64,000 nt of DNA from an uncultured Gammaproteobacteria bacterium (GTDB lineage: Bacteria; Pseudomonadota; Gammaproteobacteria; CAWJPQ01). Below, piece by piece: positions 24,611 to 32,601 of the stretch (positions within the stretch are counted from its first letter, which is position 1; the number at the start of each line of letters is the position of its first letter). The notes under the pieces were generated by a model. That model was not told the DNA's origin. It was given only the letters and a program-made list of their open reading frames with translations, and ran no database searches. The stretch spans positions 10,088-74,087 of the forward strand of contig CAWJPQ010000003.1 of the NCBI GenBank assembly GCA_963844825.1. The letters run 5' to 3'. A program made the position numbers and the translations under genes.

Positions 24611-25546
24611 TTAAACAAAAATACTCCCCAGATGCCTGATTATCCTCCCGATTGAATCGCTGACACTGTTATCGAACCAGTCGGCCTCACTCTCCGCCCT
24701 CAACCACGTCAACTGGCGTTTCGCGAATTGCCGGGTGGCCGTCACAGCATGGTCCCTCATTTGCTCATAAGAACTGTTCCCGGCCAAATAGTTCCATACC
24801 TGACGATACCCCACCGCCCGCATGGCCGGCAGGTCAATGCTCAGGTCCCCCCGCCGGTACAGCCGGGAGACCTCCTCCAGGAGACCGCCGGCGAGCATCT
24901 GGTCAAAACGCCCCGCAATGCGTTGGTGGAGGATGGACCGCTCCGCGGGGGCCATCACCAGTTTCACCACCCGGTAGGGCAGCGCCGTGGGACCCGGCTC
25001 GAGACACAACTGCGTCCAGCTTTTCCCTTCAATTTCAAAAATTTCCAACGCACGCTGGATGCGCTGGCGGTCGTTGGGATGAATGCGGGCCGCCGTGGCC
25101 GGGTCCACCTGGCGGACCCGCTCGTGAAGGCTCGCCCAGCCCTCCCGTTGCGCCTGGTCTAGAATACGGCGACGCACTTGCGGGTCCGCGGAGGGCAGTT
25201 CGGACAGCCCCCGTTGCAGGGCCCGAAAATACAGCATTGTCCCCCCGACCAGTAATGGTATTCGGCCCTCGCCTGTGATCTGCGCCATCTCGGCAAGGGC
25301 ATCCCGACGAAATTCCGCCGCCGAATAGGCCTCCAGGGGGTCCCGGATATCCACCAGGCGGTGAGGCACCTCCCGCAACACCTCCGGCGGCGGCTTTGCC
25401 GACCCGATGTCCATCCCCCGGTACACCTGGGATGAATCCACGCTGACAATGTCGCAGGGAAACCGTTTGACGATCTCGAGGGCCATGTGGGTCTTGCCCG
25501 AGGCCGTGGGACCCATGAGGAAAATAACCGGTGGGAGCGCTTTCAT
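24611..25546 (-). CDS. miaA: tRNA dimethylallyltransferase
   Basis: [40 protein letters not shown]. Confidence 0.97.
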
Positions 25547-25610: not shown

Positions 25611-25880
25611 CCCCAATTCGGGACACCCACCATTTCAGCAATTCGGGACACCCATGCATTTCAGGCCCACCCGGCGTGACCATTCAGCGCACCTCAGTGC
25701 CTCCCTTCATGCTCAATTCGGGTCCCGGCACGGCCGTTCAACGGCCCCAATTAATGGGTGTCCTGAATAATTGTGGATTGAGCGCCGAGGGCCCGGCTTT
25801 TATGGGTGTCCCCAAAGGCCCTTAGAGGCTCATTTTGTGGGTGTCCTCAAAACGGCCCCAATTGATGGGTGTCCTGAATT
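25611..25880. repeat. Left bipartite array of GGACACCCA-core repeats (2 forward, 1 degenerate, 4 reverse)
   Basis: AATTCGGGACACCCA at 25615 and 25640; TGGGTGTCC at 25755, 25803, 25838, 25866. Confidence 0.9.
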
Positions 25881-25988
25881 GGAGGTAAAAACGGAGCGGC
25901 CCTTGGATTTCGGCGGGTCATCCCAGATATAATGCTATCTTGTCGATTCATCTTTTAAGTACTGGTCTGTAGACCGGATAGCGGTGTT

Positions 25989-26421
25989 ATGAACGAATTC
26001 ACTCCCCTGCTTTCAACGATTGGTGGCATTCTCATCGGGCTTGCCGTGGCGGGTCTGTTCTTCTTCAACGGCCGGATCCTGGGGATCAGCAACATCGCCG
26101 CGGAGCTGTTCGGATCCGATCATGCGGGCAGGCAATGGCGTTTTACGTTTATCCTGGGCCTGTTGGCCGGGGGTGGCCTGCTGGAGCTGTTTTACCCCGC
26201 CGCCCTGAGTGTCCCGAGCCCCCGTTCCATTCCGGTGTTGGTCCTGGCCGGCCTGCTGGTGGGCTACGGGACGGGAATGGGCCGGGGGTGCACCAGCGGT
26301 CACGGCATCTGCGGCATCAGCCGCCTGTCACCCCGGTCGATTGTCGCCACGCTTGGTCTTTATGGCCTCCGGCATGGTGACCGTGTACATCACCAACCAC
26401 CTGCTGGGGGGGAGCGCATGA
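25989..26421 (+). CDS. YeeE/YedE family sulfur-compound transporter subunit (PmpA/PmpB-like), 1-nt insertion near 26353
   Basis: NGRILGIS, GCTSGHGICGISRLSPRS; C-terminus (VFMASGMVTV) in shifted frame. Confidence 0.85.
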
Positions 26422-26894
26422 TGAGGCTGTTGACCGTCTTTCTGTCCGGCCTGCTGTTCTCCCTGGGGCTCGGCATCTCCGGGATGACCCAGCCCACCAA
26501 GGTCATCGGCTTTCTGGACATCTTCGGCCACTGGGATCCCAGCCTGGCCTGCGTCATGGCGGGCGCGGTGGGCGTCAACCTTATTCTGTACCGTTTGTCC
26601 ATCAAGCGCCTGCAGCCATTGTTCGCCCCGCAATTCACCGTCCCGTCCAAGCGCCCCATCAATGTGCCCCTGATCGCCGGGTCCGTGCTGTTCGGTGTCG
26701 GTTGGGGCTTGTCGGGCTACTGCCCGGGCCCGGCGCTGGTCTCCGCCGTCACCGGATGGGGTTCCGTGCTGGCCTTCGTAGGTGCCATGCTCGTGGGCAT
26801 GATCCTGTTTCAACGCCTGCAGGCAAGGCGCATCTACCCTGACCCCGCCAACAAGCCGGACATCGCCTCCACGTCGACTTCCGCCCGTCAATAG
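26418..26894 (+). CDS. YeeE/YedE family (DUF6691-like) transporter partner subunit
   Basis: GLGISGMTQPTKVIGFLD, WDPSL, GWGLSGYCPGPA; ATGA overlap with upstream gene. Confidence 0.85.
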   Translation: MMRLLTVFLSGLLFSLGLGISGMTQPTKVIGFLDIFGHWDPSLACVMAGAVGVNLILYRLSIKRLQPLFAPQFTVPSKRPINVPLIAGSVLFGVGWGLSGYCPGPALVSAVTGWGSVLAFVGAMLVGMILFQRLQARRIYPDPANKPDIASTSTSARQ

Positions 26895-26948
26895 CGCCTG
26901 CCCCCGCCGAGGGGCAGGCAACGCACGACCAGACAAGAAACTCAGCCC

Positions 26949-28361
26949 TTAGCGCTCGTAGGCCAGTTCGTGGGGGAAGCGTCCTTCAGGGACCACGGTC
27001 CCCTCGCGGGCGGTCATCCACATGTTGTACAGCCACACCAGGTTGCCCGTGAACACCATGGTGCCACCGGCCCAGCGCCCGATCATGTAGGGATGCTCGG
27101 CCATGACGGTCTCGATGTAGGGCACCTCGTAGATCTTGGATGCACCCTGGATCAGGCCGGCGATGGTCATGGTCACCCAGTACGTGATGAAGCCGATCAG
27201 GACGAACCAGAAGTGGAAGTTTCCCAAGGCCAGAGAGTACAGCTTGCGGCGCATCATCTGCTGCAGGCCGAAGTACACCGCCGCGATCTCGATGTGCGAT
27301 GAAAAGCCCAGCAGCGCCAGGTGGGCGTGGGCCACAATCCAGCCGGTGCCGTGGATGTACCAGTTGATCGAACGGGTCTGCTGGAAGCCTCCCTGCATGT
27401 TCAGGGGCACGGCCATCAGTACGCCGACGATTACGAACTTCATCTCCAGGTTCTCCACGAACATGCTCCACTTGCCCTTGATGGTCAGCAGGATGTTCGC
27501 CACGAAGGCCACCGCCGGGATCAGGATCAGCACGCCCTCCACCGAAGCAAAGGACTTCAGCCACTCCGGCAGCGGCGCCGACATCAGGTGGTGCGCGGCG
27601 GGCGTGGAGTAGAAGGCGACGATCGCCCAGAAGTTCAGATGCGCTACGCGGTGGGAGTACAGCGGATTGCCCGTGAGCTTGGGGACCATGAAATAGGCGA
27701 TGCCGATGGCCACCGGCGTAATCCACAGCCCGAGGATGTTGTGGCCGTTCCACCAGGTCAGATAGGCCTCGGTCAGGCCGGTGAGGTGGAAGTACTCCGG
27801 TGACTGACCGACGGTGAACACCACCGCCAGCATGAAGATGCACGCGCCGAAGAACCAGTTGGTGATGTAGATACCCTGAGTACGTCGGTGGGCGATGGTC
27901 ATCCACACGTTGATGCCGAGGGGGAGCACAGCTAAGAAGGTAAAGGCCAGGTCGGCGGGCCAGATAAAGTCCGAGTATTCGCGTCCCGAGGTGAACCCCA
28001 GCCATAGCAAGACGCTGGCGACGGCCAGGCTGCCGTTCCATCCCATGGCGGTCCACAACCCGAGCTTTTCCGACCACAGCTTGGTGTTACCCAGGGCAGG
28101 CGTGATGTACATCATGGTCATGGCAAAGGCGCCGGAGATCCAGCCGAGGATCACAGCCATTACGTGGACCTGGCGCATGTGGCCAAATGAAAACATCTCC
28201 GACCCAGTGACGAAATCGGGAAAGGCCAGCTTGGCCGCATTGTACGATCCCAGCCCCGTGCCGACGATGAACCACAGGATCGCCGAGAAGCCGAACACGA
28301 TGGTCGCCGCCCCCGGCGGAATATCCTTATTTTTGGCAAAAAGGTATTTGATGACACTCAT
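26949..28361 (-). CDS. ccoN: Heme-copper oxidase subunit I, cbb3 (C-family) type, divergent and orphan
   Basis: ~12 TM; RQVH, GREY, WWNGHN, Y-x5-HH (YSTPAAHH), HAH: six His ligands plus helix VII Tyr. Confidence 0.85.
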   Translation of the reverse strand: MSVIKYLFAKNKDIPPGAATIVFGFSAILWFIVGTGLGSYNAAKLAFPDFVTGSEMFSFGHMRQVHVMAVILGWISGAFAMTMMYITPALGNTKLWSEKLGLWTAMGWNGSLAVASVLLWLGFTSGREYSDFIWPADLAFTFLAVLPLGINVWMTIAHRRTQGIYITNWFFGACIFMLAVVFTVGQSPEYFHLTGLTEAYLTWWNGHNILGLWITPVAIGIAYFMVPKLTGNPLYSHRVAHLNFWAIVAFYSTPAAHHLMSAPLPEWLKSFASVEGVLILIPAVAFVANILLTIKGKWSMFVENLEMKFVIVGVLMAVPLNMQGGFQQTRSINWYIHGTGWIVAHAHLALLGFSSHIEIAAVYFGLQQMMRRKLYSLALGNFHFWFVLIGFITYWVTMTIAGLIQGASKIYEVPYIETVMAEHPYMIGRWAGGTMVFTGNLVWLYNMWMTAREGTVVPEGRFPHELAYER

Positions 28362-28753
28362 TGGCTCTTATCCTCATCGAGGTGGTTTGCCGATATTGGC
28401 ACCTTCTCCCCGGTAAAATAGGCCGTCCTACCGGATAAGGATAGGGAGAAAACAGAGCATCATTGGTGATTCTGCGCAGGTGCGGACCTGGGTGGGGTCA
28501 CAGATTAGTCGGCTTTGAAAACCGAAGTGCCAGCGATCAGGGGCTCTCTTTCCTGCTCAACAGCAGATGAACACAGGGTCCCGGCCTCCAGCGTGTGACG
28601 ATCACGGCACCTACAAAGCCACTTCCCAATTCGTTCCCGGCCGATCCCAGGCGCCACCGGCACCCCGTTGTAAACACCGGACGGCTTTGCGCAACCCCGG
28701 CAGTGGAGACGGCCCACAAAGGCCCATAAAAAGAAAAGCCTGACCATGCTTGG

Positions 28754-28769
28754 GCAAGGCACATACCAG
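28754..28769 (-). promoter_or_regulatory. Candidate sigma54 promoter facing ccoN
   Basis: Minus strand CTGGTATGTGCCTTGC (GG-N10-GC); IHF-like TATCAATTTGTTT at 28809-28821; divergent sigma54-activator remnant. Confidence 0.55.
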
Positions 28770-28890
28770 CTACCTTCACCGGTGCGTCGACATCGGGACA
28801 AACCTACATATCAATTTGTTTTTATGTAATATATTCCTGCGCAACCCCATTCCCCTGCGGCGCCGGTGGTGCGCATGAGGCCTTGCTCAC

Positions 28891-29607
28891 TTGCGAAAAT
28901 ACTGCCGTTTTTGTCATAAATATTTTCTAATATATGTCATTCATGTCAGGATCGTACGCCATACCTCACACCCTGCCCCTGCATCGGCCCTGCTGGATGC
29001 CCTGCCGGGGCCGGTGGTTCTCATCGACCTAAACTACCGAATCCTTGCCGCCAATGAGCGTTACTGCAGCCGCTATGGCGGCTTGGAGGGCGCAACCCAA
29101 ACACCCCGGTGTTATCAGGTCTCCCATCACCATGATCAGCCCCGCGACGTTGCCGGCGAGACCTGCCCGATGAAGAACAGCCTGACCTCCGGCCACCCCC
29201 AGCGGATCCTGCACATCCACTACACCCCACGGCGCGAGAAGCACGTGGACGTGGAGACCTTCCCCATCCGCAGCGACGCCGGTCAGATCACCTATTTCCT
29301 CGAAGTGCTGCGTCCCTCGGGCGTGGCCAGTGCCCGGGCCGAGGCCGGGGGGCTGATGGGGCGCTCCCGCGCCTCCAACGGTATGCTGGAACTGATCGAG
29401 CGCGTCGCCTCCAGCGACACATCGGTGCTGCTGCTGGGCGAATCGGGCACCGCAAGGAGCTGGCGGCCAAGGCCGTCCATGACGCCAGCCCCCGGGCCAC
29501 CCCTCGCCCGGGCCCTGGGCGTCAGTGAGCGCACCCTATACCGCAAGCTGCAGGCCCTGGGCGCCGCCCCATCGTCTGAGGCCGCCGACAACGACCCAAC
29601 GCCCTGA
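28891..29607 (+). pseudogene. FisR-like sigma54 activator remnant (PAS-like sensor, Walker A stub, HTH; AAA+ core deleted)
   Basis: CYQVSH...GETCP sensor; LLLGESGT then G-K-E-L in shifted frame; jumps to LARALGVSERTLYRKL; no GAFTGA or Walker B; start uncertain. Confidence 0.8.
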
Positions 29608-29835
29608 CAGCCCCGCGCCGGCCATCAGCAGCGCACCCAGCCCCTCGCGGGACGATGTCCCGGCGGATACTGGGCCGACGTCGACATACTGACGCTGCGA
29701 CCCGTCGCCCGCAGACGACAACCGACCTTTTGCCCTTTGGAGTTCTGCAGCGCATGGTGGCGCTATCGGCCACCACACGGCATTTGAGCGGCCCTGACGG
29801 CTCATCGCTGTCAGGGCACCGTTTCCGCAGGCCAG

Positions 29836-29851
29836 CGGCACAGTAGTTGCA
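29836..29851 (+). promoter_or_regulatory. Candidate sigma54 promoter for bactofilin operon
   Basis: CGGCACAGTAGTTGCA (GG-N10-GC), 40 bp upstream of ATG with AAGGAG RBS. Confidence 0.55.
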
Positions 29852-29890
29852 TCGAGAACCCAGCCAACACCAACTGAAAGGAGAACGGGC

Positions 29891-30454
29891 ATGTTCGATC
29901 GCAATTCATCGAAGCGCACCACGGGCAGGGCCGGGGACACCGTGGAAACGGAGACCATCACCCACTCCCCCGCCCCCAAACCGCCGTCCCATGAGCGGGC
30001 CACCGGCATGGCCACCATCGGCCCTTCCATCCATATCAAGGGGGACCTCAGCGGCGAGGAGGACCTGGTGGTCCAGGGCAATGTGGAAGGCACCATTACC
30101 CTCCATGAGAACAACCTGACCATCGGCCAGGAAGGGACGGTCAACGCCAACATCCAGGCACACACCATCATCGTCGAGGGTACCCTGAAGGGTGACGCCT
30201 TCGGCGAGGAAAAGGTGACCATCAAGCGGACCGGCAGCGTGCACGGCAATGTCTCCGCGCCGCGCGTCAGCCTCGAGGATGGCGCGAAATTCAAGGGCAG
30301 CATGGACATGGACTACAAGGGATCAAAACCGGCCGAGTCATCCAAGGACAACGCCTCCGCGTCAGTGTTCAAGCTCGACAACAAGACTTCCTCCGCTGAA
30401 AAGGCTGCACCTCAGCCGAAGGCCTCGGTGGAAGCAGAAAACATTGAGACCTGA
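29891..30454 (+). CDS. Bactofilin (polymer-forming cytoskeletal protein)
   Basis: IGPSIHIKGDLSGEEDLVVQGNVEGTI...SLEDGAKFKGSMDM beta-helix repeats. Confidence 0.92.
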   Translation: MFDRNSSKRTTGRAGDTVETETITHSPAPKPPSHERATGMATIGPSIHIKGDLSGEEDLVVQGNVEGTITLHENNLTIGQEGTVNANIQAHTIIVEGTLKGDAFGEEKVTIKRTGSVHGNVSAPRVSLEDGAKFKGSMDMDYKGSKPAESSKDNASASVFKLDNKTSSAEKAAPQPKASVEAENIET

Positions 30455-30514
30455 ACCGGCGCGTCGAGCCGCCCCCATCGGGGCGGCAGGGCTGGCCGAG
30501 TCAGCGGGTAAGGA

Positions 30515-31141
30515 ATGATGTCGCTGGATCACTGCATTTTCGATCCGGAAGCGGTCGCGCCGGGGCGCCAGGTAACGAATAGCCCAGTGTTCGCCTCGCT
30601 CATCGAACGGATGGACAAGGAGCCGAACCGGGTCATTCTCGACCTGGGTCCCGCCCGCGCCGCCAATCTGGCGCTGCTGTCGAGATTTCGCTGCAAGCTC
30701 TTCTTCGAGGACGCCCATGAGTTGATCGATAACCTCACGGGCGACCCCGCAGCAGACGAGGGCGTTCTAAAAGACTGGCTCGGCCAATGGACCGCCGGTG
30801 CCGGCGACGAGTCCATCGATGTGGTGCTGGCCTGGGATATCTTCAATTATCTCGAGCCGGCGCTGTGGAGGATCTTTATCGATCATGTCACACCGCTGAT
30901 GAAAACAGGCGCCCACCTCTATCTGTTGATCTACTCGCAACGGGAAATGCCGGCGCTGCCCATGCAGTTCAAGGCCCTCGCACCGGACAAGATGGAGTAC
31001 CAGCCGTTGACCGGCGCCGCCCGACCCTCCCCCCGCCTCAATCAAACCGAACTCAAAAGGCGCATGCGCAAGTACTCCGTCGCCAAGTCGGTATTGCTGC
31101 GTAACGGATTGCAGGAATATCTGCTGAAGCGCACGGCCTGA
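30515..31141 (+). CDS. Hypothetical protein with class I SAM-methyltransferase-like fold
   Basis: VILDLGPA and IDVVLAWDIFNYL motifs; downstream of bactofilin. Confidence 0.6.
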   Translation: MMSLDHCIFDPEAVAPGRQVTNSPVFASLIERMDKEPNRVILDLGPARAANLALLSRFRCKLFFEDAHELIDNLTGDPAADEGVLKDWLGQWTAGAGDESIDVVLAWDIFNYLEPALWRIFIDHVTPLMKTGAHLYLLIYSQREMPALPMQFKALAPDKMEYQPLTGAARPSPRLNQTELKRRMRKYSVAKSVLLRNGLQEYLLKRTA

Positions 31142-31227
31142 ATCGCACCGGTCACGGCATCGCCCGCAGGCCTTCTCAGGTGTTCGCCGGCTGAGGCGAT
31201 GTCAATCGACGGGTAACCTGACGCGCG

Positions 31228-31839
31228 CTAGAGAATGCGCACCACCGCCTGTTTGGTAAACAGGCTGAACGCCAGATATTCATAGGTCCAGCCGTTGCCG
31301 CGGACCGCCTCCTGAAACGCCTTGAACTCGTCCTCGCGCCAATGTTTGTTGCCGACGTATTCGTCAAAGACGATAACTGTTCCGGGGACGACTTGCGCCG
31401 CAAGCGTATCGAGGAGGGTCTTGGTAGCACTGTAGATGTCGCAATCGATATTCATGAAACGCACCGGATCCTTGTGGGTCTTCACGAATTCCGGCAGGGT
31501 GTCCTCAAACCACCCCTTGTGCAAGACGACATTGTCCGGGACCTGCGGCATGACCCCGTGGGTCGTATAGCTGCCCTTTTCCTCCCGGTGCCAGGCTTCC
31601 GGCAAACCCTCAAAACTGTCAAAGCCATGCACCGGTTGTTGTGCCAGGTGGGCAATCTGACGAATGGTGGTACCGAACCTGACGCCGAACTCCAACACCA
31701 GCCCTGAATCACGGGCCGACTCCAGGCCGAGGCGGAAGGCTTCGCGATGGGAGCCGATCATCGTGGGCATGCTCGGACCGGCCGATTTTAAGTAACGCCA
31801 TGCATCGGCGCGTTCTCTTTCATGGACGGTCACAGGCAT
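31228..31839 (-). CDS. TylF/Methyltransf_24-like class I SAM methyltransferase, possibly 5'-truncated
   Basis: LEFGVRFG, GFDSFEGLPE, KGWFEDTL, IDCDIYSAT, IVFDEY. Confidence 0.8.
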   Translation of the reverse strand: MPVTVHERERADAWRYLKSAGPSMPTMIGSHREAFRLGLESARDSGLVLEFGVRFGTTIRQIAHLAQQPVHGFDSFEGLPEAWHREEKGSYTTHGVMPQVPDNVVLHKGWFEDTLPEFVKTHKDPVRFMNIDCDIYSATKTLLDTLAAQVVPGTVIVFDEYVGNKHWREDEFKAFQEAVRGNGWTYEYLAFSLFTKQAVVRIL

Positions 31840-31944
31840 TAGTGCGCATAAACAGTCACTTGCGTTGAACCTGGCCGGGCCCAGGCAGTTTACGGCGCCC
31901 GGGACGGCCGCCTTCTTCCCAATATTGTACTCAATTCTTCGGCC

Positions 31945-32215
31945 TCACAATTATGGGGACACCCATTATTCCGGTCACAATTATGGGGACACCCATTATT
32001 CCGGTTGAAAGACATCCACTCGCTCTCAGATGCCCTGATTTGAACTGCTGTGGATTCAGTGGGTGTCCCGAATTGAAGTGGTGGGTGTCCCAAATTGCAC
32101 CCCCAAATTGAAGAGTGCTGTGGATTTGGTGGGTGTCCCGAATTGCATTGCACCGATTTGGTGGGTGTCCCGAATTGCAGGCGGTGGATTTGGTGGGTGT
32201 CCCGAATTGCAGGCG
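31945..32215. repeat. Right bipartite array of GGACACCCA-core repeats (2 forward, 5 reverse)
   Basis: Perfect 30-bp tandem TCACAATTATGGGGACACCCATTATTCCGG x2; GTGGGTGTCCC(G/A)AATTG at 32059, 32081, 32129, 32161, 32193. Confidence 0.92.
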
Positions 32216-32324: not shown

Positions 32325-32458
32325 AAGTGGCGGAGAGGGAGGGATTACTCGGCCCCAAGGGGCCTCGCCCTTCGGGCCGCCGCATCGGCGGCGTTCAACC
32401 GGCCTGCGACCGGTTGTCGAACCCGCTGTTCCTCAACCCGGGGGCTCGAATCCCCGCA
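32325..32458 (-). ncRNA. RtT-like tRNA-associated repeat element downstream of tRNA-Ser
   Basis: 22-bp exact copy of the tRNA 3' end (32325-32346 = 32511-32532) followed by GGATTACTC...TCGCCCTTCGGG...GTCGAACC, the layout of the E. coli rtT repeats. Confidence 0.65.
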
Positions 32459-32513
32459 TACATGAGGGTTTCGCGGTTTTTGAGTATCCATGGCCAAGAC
32501 CCTATGCCTCAAG

Positions 32514-32601
32514 TGGCGGAGAGGGAGGGATTCGAACCCCCGGACGGTTGCCCGTCAACGGTTTTCAAGACCGCCGCTTTCGACCACTCAGCCACCTCTC
32601 C
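32514..32601 (-). tRNA. tRNA-Ser (anticodon TGA)
   Basis: GGAGAGG acceptor stem, anticodon loop CTTGAAA, long variable arm, GGTTCGAATCC, encoded CCA. Confidence 0.97.

Follow-up and report, generated by a model that had tools for sequence, protein, structure and literature searches.

Between miaA and a tRNA-Ser gene of an uncultured gammaproteobacterium lies an interval of about 6 kb bordered by two arrays of a short repeat, GGACACCCA, and the question raised by this locus is what built the arrays and whether they move the DNA between them. The window, as the whole analysed stretch of 64 kb is called here, corresponds to C3:10088-74087 in a genome of 3.1 Mb, 14 contigs and 79% completeness (GenBank assembly GCA_963844825.1); positions without a contig prefix refer to the window. 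A preliminary description of this DNA had taken the arrays for emptied elements, perhaps of a Y1/HUH, RAYT-like type, that as a pair could capture or mobilise the genes between them, and had offered them as its best candidate for an undescribed mobile system. The arrays are most likely clusters, without a gene of their own, of the repeats that belong to a TnpA-Y1 subclass 2.3 protein, comparable to TIRtrons and REPtrons and having multi-unit, non-hairpin ends. The subclass 2.3 protein is a long (~340 aa) HUH/Y1 single-stranded DNA (ssDNA) transposase, a relative of RAYT and TIRYT.

Two inward-facing arrays of a 22-nt unit in the window

Exact copies of GGACACCCA were counted in the window and in shuffled sequence. 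Thirteen copies are present against 0.96 expected (sd 0.88, largest 4), a number that none of 100 shuffles reached, and all are confined to two arrays of ~265 bp, L and R, which lie ~6.07 kb apart. Array L (25614-25881, no strand) has its cores at 25621+, 25646+, 25755-, 25803-, 25838- and 25866-, and a degenerate forward unit at about 25715-25730. In array R (31950-32209, no strand) the cores are at 31957+, 31987+, 32060-, 32082-, 32130-, 32162- and 32194-. With the longer 15-mer AATTCGGGACACCCA and up to two mismatches, 9 matches were obtained in the window where 0.19 are expected. Alignment of the 45 clustered copies found genome-wide defines a unit of ~22 nt with the consensus AAATTCGGGACACCCAyCAAtt and the invariant core GGACACCCA. 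Scanned with a position weight matrix (PWM) of this unit at a threshold of 14 bits or more, array L reads ++---- and array R ++-----. The forward and reverse halves of each array are separated by 64-100 bp and have no gene between them. Spacing of the units is irregular (22-48 bp) and there are local tandem duplications, seen as three 32-bp periods in R. Count, shuffles and reading of the sequence thus bear out the preliminary description as to the facing halves, the 13 copies, their absence from the rest of the window and the uneven spacing with local duplications.

The arrays were also folded as ssDNA. Array L forms nested hairpins between forward and reverse units (z = -4.66), and in array R forward units likewise pair with reverse units (z = -2.95).

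The same units flank intact HUH/Y1 genes elsewhere in the genome

The whole genome contains 81 cores where ~40 are expected by base composition, and 45 of the 81 fall in 10 clusters. The PWM scan gave 73 units against 5 in the reversed-sequence control. Two of the clustered loci enclose a gene. At C2:142769-144326, units at 142769-142872 (++++) precede a gene at 142958-143998 (+), and units at 144210-144326 (---) follow it; at C3:110995-112739, seven forward units (110995-111481) and four reverse units (112654-112739, ----) enclose a gene at 111555-112625 (-). At both loci the units face inward, also relative to the gene, with 4-7 upstream and 3-4 downstream of it. Both open reading frames (ORFs) carry the motifs NHYH and YVDLNP, and the two proteins are 59% identical to each other. 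Since the same inward units flank intact HUH/Y1 genes in this genome, the enzyme type guessed from the window alone, Y1/HUH and RAYT-like, was right. The window arrays have the inward layout of these gene-bearing loci, the geometry of element ends lacking the gene, as had been supposed.

Arrays without a gene occur at no fewer than six loci of the genome, the two window arrays included. The others are C2:161021-161306 (+++----), C2:185143-185391 (+++++-), C12:298405-298527 (++-) and the one-sided cluster C3:135753-135898 (-----). The 64-kb window contains no Y1 homologue. Only the ~22-nt units are common to arrays L and R and the gene-bearing loci: the gene-less arrays and the gene-bearing loci have no common stretch of 30 nt or more, and comparison with the latter found no gene remnant and no conserved 5' leader in the window arrays. 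The notion that the arrays were emptied by loss of a gene is therefore not borne out. The leader in question is a 32-nt stretch, 97% identical between C2:142961-142992 and C3:112570-112601, which takes in the start codon and the preceding 27 nt. With the inward geometry present and the gene absent, the window arrays are to the gene-bearing loci what REPIN/BIME clusters are to the REPtron and what clusters of terminal inverted repeats (TIRs) are to the TIRtron, by analogy with those systems.

The surroundings of the one-sided cluster also contain a second tRNA-Ser: the region C3:135471-154672 comprises this tRNA gene, the array (-----), TPR-sulfotransferase paralogues at ~140-153 kb and a lone core at 154672.

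The genome has three further, shorter Y1 paralogues, with frames of 240-290 aa (C7:58007-58794, C11:581483-582309 and C11:478667-479451). These (at C7:58334, C11:581825 and C11:478956) lie between single perfect inverted repeats of 17-24 nt, ~770-800 bp apart, that carry GGGGACAG or GGGGTCAG. They are classical TIRtrons, and the genome has this type alongside the multi-unit subclass 2.3 loci.

The protein carries the signatures of TnpA-Y1 subclass 2.3

An alignment of 28 sequences places the start of the protein at M18, giving 339 aa. Residues N87, H88, H90, W179, E180 and Y200-N204 are invariant in it and P205 is found in at least 90%; position 89 is Y in the query, the tyrosine motif reads Y200 V201 D202 L203 N204, and H90 and Y200 are 110 residues apart. 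The C-terminal region is also conserved in the family. Pfam gave no match at E <= 0.001 (Y1_Tnp only at E = 0.057), residues 161-217 match NCBIfam REP_Tyr_transpos at E = 8e-9, short of the family cut-off, and nothing in the PDB matched by sequence or profile. The AlphaFold2 model (pLDDT 74.2) was therefore compared by Foldseek. The top match is 4er8_A, the E. coli REP-associated tyrosine transposase (E = 4e-4, probability 1.00, TM 0.65 on the target), followed by the IS200, ISDra2 and IS608 TnpA chains. The predicted structure thus has the HUH/Y1 fold of the IS200/RAYT type. The C-terminal domain alone (109 aa, pLDDT 76.5) gave no fold match, with a best Foldseek E of 3.6 and a best VIA-align Z of 2.8.

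A homologue search returned at least 8000 proteins at E <= 0.001. The best 120 of these are mostly ~320-375 aa long, and where a name is given it is mostly 'transposase' or 'REP element-mobilizing transposase RayT'. Homologues were tallied across 41 genomes, one of them unpublished (G040), on which no individual statement made here depends.

In the text of the survey by Quentin, Siguier, Chandler and Fichant (2018, PMC6006769), subclass 2.3 has a median length of 325 aa, the motifs NHYH, WE and YVDLNP, a 55-aa insertion that brings the median HuH-Y distance to 110, and a specific C-terminal tail. Its hosts are given there as Chromatiales and Alteromonadales, with 3.9 copies per genome. Motifs, the 110-aa HuH-Y distance, length and C-terminal tail of the array-linked protein all fit, and on its sequence the protein is assigned to this subclass.

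Units beside homologous genes in other genomes and in metagenomes

Relatives were sought in reference genomes, and 608 of the 618 matching stretches encode one. Eighty loci were kept, and 17 were dropped because they lacked 400 nt upstream or 500 nt downstream, leaving 63 for analysis. The motif [GA]ACACC occurs 87 times forward and 12 times reverse in the 350 nt upstream of the gene; in the 450 nt downstream the counts are 12 forward and 63 reverse. Both sides have inward-facing copies at 29 of the 63 loci, as compared to 3 of 63 for the outward control. Exact GGACACCCA arrays stand beside homologues in Microbulbifer (2+/4-), Pseudohongiella and other genera. The variant AGACACCCA flanks the gene in Pseudoalteromonas and Paraglaciecola, and some homologue loci bear other repeats, such as GAGCACGGA at 4+/10-. 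The homologue of G003 has one inward pair beside the gene in a relaxed motif scan; a repeat finder run on the homologue loci of G001, G003 and G012 returned no arrays. Two homologues, from an Endozoicomonas sp. metagenome-assembled genome (MAG; L043) and a Ca. Thiodiazotropha sp. MAG (L053), have an in-frame stop in the C-terminal domain and are possibly pseudogenes.

Hahella sp. NBU794 has 101 cores against 45 in the control, and 44 of the 101 lie within 53 kb around its single Y1 gene, where many of the spacers that separate ordinary genes (ABC transporter, deo genes, corA, LysR regulators, catalase) contain them. The preliminary description had placed arrays at island borders; in Hahella they are spread over many intergenic spacers around the one gene and are not paired at borders. 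This neighbourhood is chromosome 3,692,250-3,744,991, and a phage-type integrase gene is found at its left edge (3,693,241-3,694,575). The Pseudohongiella chromosome holds 150 cores, as singles and small clusters, where the control has 17.

Metagenomes were scanned for three spaced cores, giving 77 loci. A homologue lies within the examined flanks, up to 2.5 kb, at 9 of the 77, a rough figure because several of the matches are regular tandem repeats with an 18-, 21-, 31- or 42-nt period that are probably unrelated; among loci with full 2.5-kb flanks the gene is present at 1 of 18. One-sided arrays are found at many metagenome loci as well. A search of the genome and of public MAGs for clustered GGACACCCA had been suggested as a check; the searches made here found arrays beside Y1 genes as well as gene-less ones.

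The miaA-tRNA-Ser interval is a mosaic

The left core flank of the interval is miaA (24611-25546, -), the tRNA isopentenyltransferase gene (Pfam IPPT, E = 2.3e-87), which is collinear with G001:C21 of the sister species; its likely ATG, read from the sequence, is ~67 bp from array L. The right core flank is tRNA-Ser(UGA) at 32514-32601 (-), found by ARAGORN and by Rfam tRNA (61.9 bits) and 99% identical to G001:C83:6751-6840. As had been stated, the interval lies beside tRNA-Ser and has neither integrase nor transposase: the Pfam search found no such family in its ORFs. A 24-nt duplicate of the 3' end of the tRNA gene (32327-32350) was considered as an att site and rejected, since it falls in an RtT-like element downstream of the tRNA (32328-32471, -; Rfam RF00391, E = 1.7e-5, whole model matched) whose 41.7 bits are just under the gathering score of 45.

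Between the flanks lie at least five blocks, whose counterparts in G001 are scattered over five different contigs, among them C119, C34, C60 and C4. Block 1 is a YeeE/YedE-like membrane protein gene (25989-26894, +; DUF6691 and Sulf_transp) with a counterpart on G001:C119 at 70-73% aa identity. Block 2 is an extra full-length ccoN for cbb3 oxidase subunit I (26949-28361, -; Pfam COX1, E = 9.1e-75) with no ccoO after it. It matches another locus of the genome almost exactly gene for gene (26949-28375 against C9:231718-233147, 89.65% nt identity over 1430 nt), and the 185 nt upstream of it (28371-28555) are 87% identical to C12:49090-49274, copied or shared. Block 3 (28891-29607, +; Pfam PAS_4) encodes the N-terminal PAS fragment of a sigma-54-type activator. 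Homology extends from 28978 to 29501 and corresponds to residues 15-174/188 of a 441-aa activator in G001:C34; the AAA+ and DNA-binding parts are missing, and the genome has no full-length orthologue. The window ccoN adjoins this truncated gene, and ccoN is next to the activator in G001:C34 too. Block 4 consists of a bactofilin gene (29891-30454, +; Pfam Bactofilin, E = 7.2e-25) and a 208-aa ORF of no family (30515-31141, +), collinear with G001:C60 at ~70% aa identity. Block 5 is the C-terminal half of a TylF-type methyltransferase (31228-31866, -; Pfam Methyltransf_24 and TylF), residues 223-435 of a 435-aa protein in G001:C4; homology stops at 31866, ~80 bp from array R. The decay of these genes noted earlier is real for the activator reduced to its PAS part, the halved methyltransferase and the ccoN without ccoO, though ccoN itself is a full-length extra copy.

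The genome has no second copy of the interval. Its GC content is 0.56-0.67 against 0.53-0.73 in the flanks, and its blocks show 66-88% aa identity to G001, a level shared by the core genes on either side. Beyond both miaA and tRNA-Ser, G001 carries NHL and TPR-sulfotransferase genes instead. The sulfotransferase genes next to miaA and tRNA-Ser(UGA) in G001 hint at translocation between regions that include C3:135471-154672. The comparison with G001 covers 350 contigs at 65-87% nt identity in synteny blocks of a few kb. Arrays L and R and the array at C2:185k are at synteny breaks with G001, which is suggestive at most given that synteny with this species is broken every few kb. The truncation at ~29500 has no adjacent array.

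Contigs assembled from reads were compared with the interval. None of them bridges it, and neither an empty site nor a circle was found in these short, low-depth contigs, whose uncovered parts prove nothing. In runs X4 and X6 small shares were covered, mostly of conserved genes. In contigs of runs X1 and X2, array L departs from the window sequence: its forward half is shorter by ~22 letters, and its reverse half contains a back-joint 25858>25740.

Relation to known systems

Multi-site transposon ends, as in Tn7, Mu and IS21, have several directly repeated protein-binding sites per end with the ends facing each other; they depend on DDE transposases, and their double-stranded ends have a fixed layout. 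The loci described here likewise have several directly repeated sites at each facing end, but the enzyme is of the HUH/Y1 type and the number and spacing of the sites are irregular.

With REPtrons, REPINs and BIMEs (Nunvar 2010; Bertels and Rainey 2011), the present loci share a Y1 gene between inverted short repeats, gene-less inverted clusters in intergenic regions and a predicted fold-back of the two halves. They differ from these repetitive extragenic palindrome (REP) systems in units that are non-palindromic and form no stable hairpin, and whose consensus lacks the GTAG/GTGG tag (the rule as worded in PMC6006769). Copies number tens here, not hundreds, the core is kept across genera, and the gene is present in two diverged copies.

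TIRtrons, according to the text of Di Nocera, De Gregorio and Rocco (2013, PMC3733652), consist of a RAYT-like gene between terminal inverted repeats sharing GGGGWSAS, and further TIR copies occur in the genome as singles, dimers or clusters. The resemblance lies in the RAYT-like gene between inverted repeats and in the additional repeat copies elsewhere; here, however, each end is an array of 2-7 units and not one TIR. GGGGWSAS strictly fits 13 of the 45 units (3 of the 13 in the window); most units read CGGGACAC, one G short. In the text of PMC6006769 the published TIRYTs are assigned to subclass 2.1, with a few in 2.2 and 2.5, and not to 2.3; the protein found here differs from those groups in bearing the 2.3 signatures.

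Agreement with subclass 2.3 as set out in that text extends over motifs, ~110-aa spacing, a length of ~325-340 aa, the C-terminal tail, gammaproteobacterial hosts and several diverged copies. The same text enters 'REP: no' for subclass 2.3, its REP search having demanded the GTAG/GTGG tag plus a hairpin, whereas the genes described here lie within inverted multi-unit arrays of the non-hairpin GGACACCCA unit and gene-less arrays exist too. A literature search found no text linking subclass 2.3 to such arrays, figures and supplements not being covered, and matching the motif strings to the literature gave primers and the like only. With the protein subclass (PMC6006769) and the related TIRtron class (PMC3733652) both published, 'undescribed mobile system' was too strong a term.

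Alternative explanations

The placement of the arrays at both ends of the miaA-tRNA-Ser interval could be read as that of a composite element, in which they serve as the ends and the intervening 6 kb is cargo, captured or moved by a Y1 protein that acts in trans. The content of the interval is unlike that of the sister species, the methyltransferase fragment stops ~80 bp from array R, and the genome has two intact Y1 genes. We nevertheless regard this as highly improbable. Each array is already a complete inward pair and not a half-end, neither array is a copy of the other and only units are common to both, and the interval is single-copy with ordinary GC content. Moreover, its blocks are scattered in G001 (C119, C34, C60, C4) at core-like identity, one truncation (~29500) is without an array, and the arrays of Hahella fill many spacers among ordinary genes. 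Capture or mobilisation of cargo by the array pair, as first proposed, is hence not upheld. A composite transposon or a tRNA-linked island was rejected as well: near-identical bounding elements, integrase, att site, foreign composition and a second copy are all missing from the interval.

Two other explanations keep the link to the Y1 protein, and both appear unlikely, to a similar degree. The arrays might be two complete elements from which an internal deletion removed the gene, remnants like miniature inverted-repeat transposable elements (MITEs), and not clusters built from units. In favour of this, the arrays have the inward geometry of the gene-bearing loci, their halves lying 64-100 bp apart, and the text of PMC3733652 describes TIR dimers and clusters in TIRtron-bearing genomes. 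Against it, the arrays and the gene-bearing loci have no stretch of at least 30 nt in common, and even the 32-nt leader, 97% identical between the genes, is absent from the arrays; one-sided arrays exist (C3:135753-135898 and many metagenome loci), and units within an array are local tandem duplicates. Alternatively, the units might serve a domesticated Y1 protein as double-stranded binding sites with a regulatory or architectural, iteron-like role, being immobile and spread by slippage only. Invariance of the HUH and Tyr catalytic residues in all 28 aligned sequences speaks against this, as do the occurrence of units at many unrelated loci, up to 150 per genome, and the multicopy nature of subclass 2.3, called recently spreading in the text of PMC6006769; slippage alone does not seed new loci. 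Binding sites would fit with a 9-nt core that is kept among 45-55%-identical proteins in distant genera, unlike species-specific REPs, with units that are not hairpins, with multi-copy sites of irregular spacing in promoter-side spacers such as that upstream of miaA, and with the conserved C-terminal domain of the family, which has no assigned fold.

Several observations weigh against the explanation preferred here, gene-less clusters of subclass 2.3 repeats. Single units hardly form hairpins (mean minimum free energy of 45 units -2.4 kcal/mol against -1.5 +/- 1.3 in shuffles, with a stem limited to 3-4 bp GGG(G)/CCC(C)), so that the usual Y1 substrate is not evident. No inward [GA]ACACC pair is present at 34 of the 63 homologue loci. 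In the sister species G001 the homologue is 50% identical and has one recognisable unit beside the gene but no arrays, and the G012 homologue has no unit beside the gene in the relaxed motif scan. The tandem repeats among the metagenome matches also count on this side. The array variants in runs X1 and X2 are weak evidence, since both runs belong to a single study, perhaps on the very sample behind the genome, and consist of contigs only. Finally, binding, cleavage and mobility of the units by the subclass 2.3 enzyme are predicted from sequence.

A possible mechanism

If the arrays are clusters of subclass 2.3 repeats, the enzyme would recognise the GGACACCCA core and act in trans. Arrays would arise and grow unit by unit near existing ones, by nick-and-reseal or replication-linked copying, and clusters may gain and lose units one by one. 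In ssDNA the forward and reverse halves would pair as a fold-back. The 6 kb between arrays L and R would not be carried by them; it would be a variable miaA-tRNA-Ser interval of rearranged, partly truncated host genes, and the arrays would sit in two of its intergenic spacers, perhaps as breakpoints. A bolder version can be put forward only tentatively and is, in our estimate, more doubtful than not: that subclass 2.3 is active on the non-hairpin GGACACCCA unit, seeds and expands arrays within tens of kb of its gene, and thereby provides breakpoints for deletions and translocations, which truncate genes and assemble mosaics such as the miaA-tRNA-Ser interval.

Implications

For the window the practical result is negative, the interval not being a new cargo-carrying element. 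Subclass 2.3 is a large, uncharacterised HUH/Y1 branch, with at least 8000 homologues and 608 reference-genome stretches, for which the main survey of the superfamily reported no DNA partner, and the 9-nt core in inward arrays is a concrete candidate substrate for its biochemistry. As a marker, the core may also help to annotate arrays without a gene in genomes and MAGs of Gammaproteobacteria. Should the arrays indeed act as breakpoints, they would represent a Y1-driven genome plasticity unlike both IS200-type transposition and the spread of REPs and REPINs.

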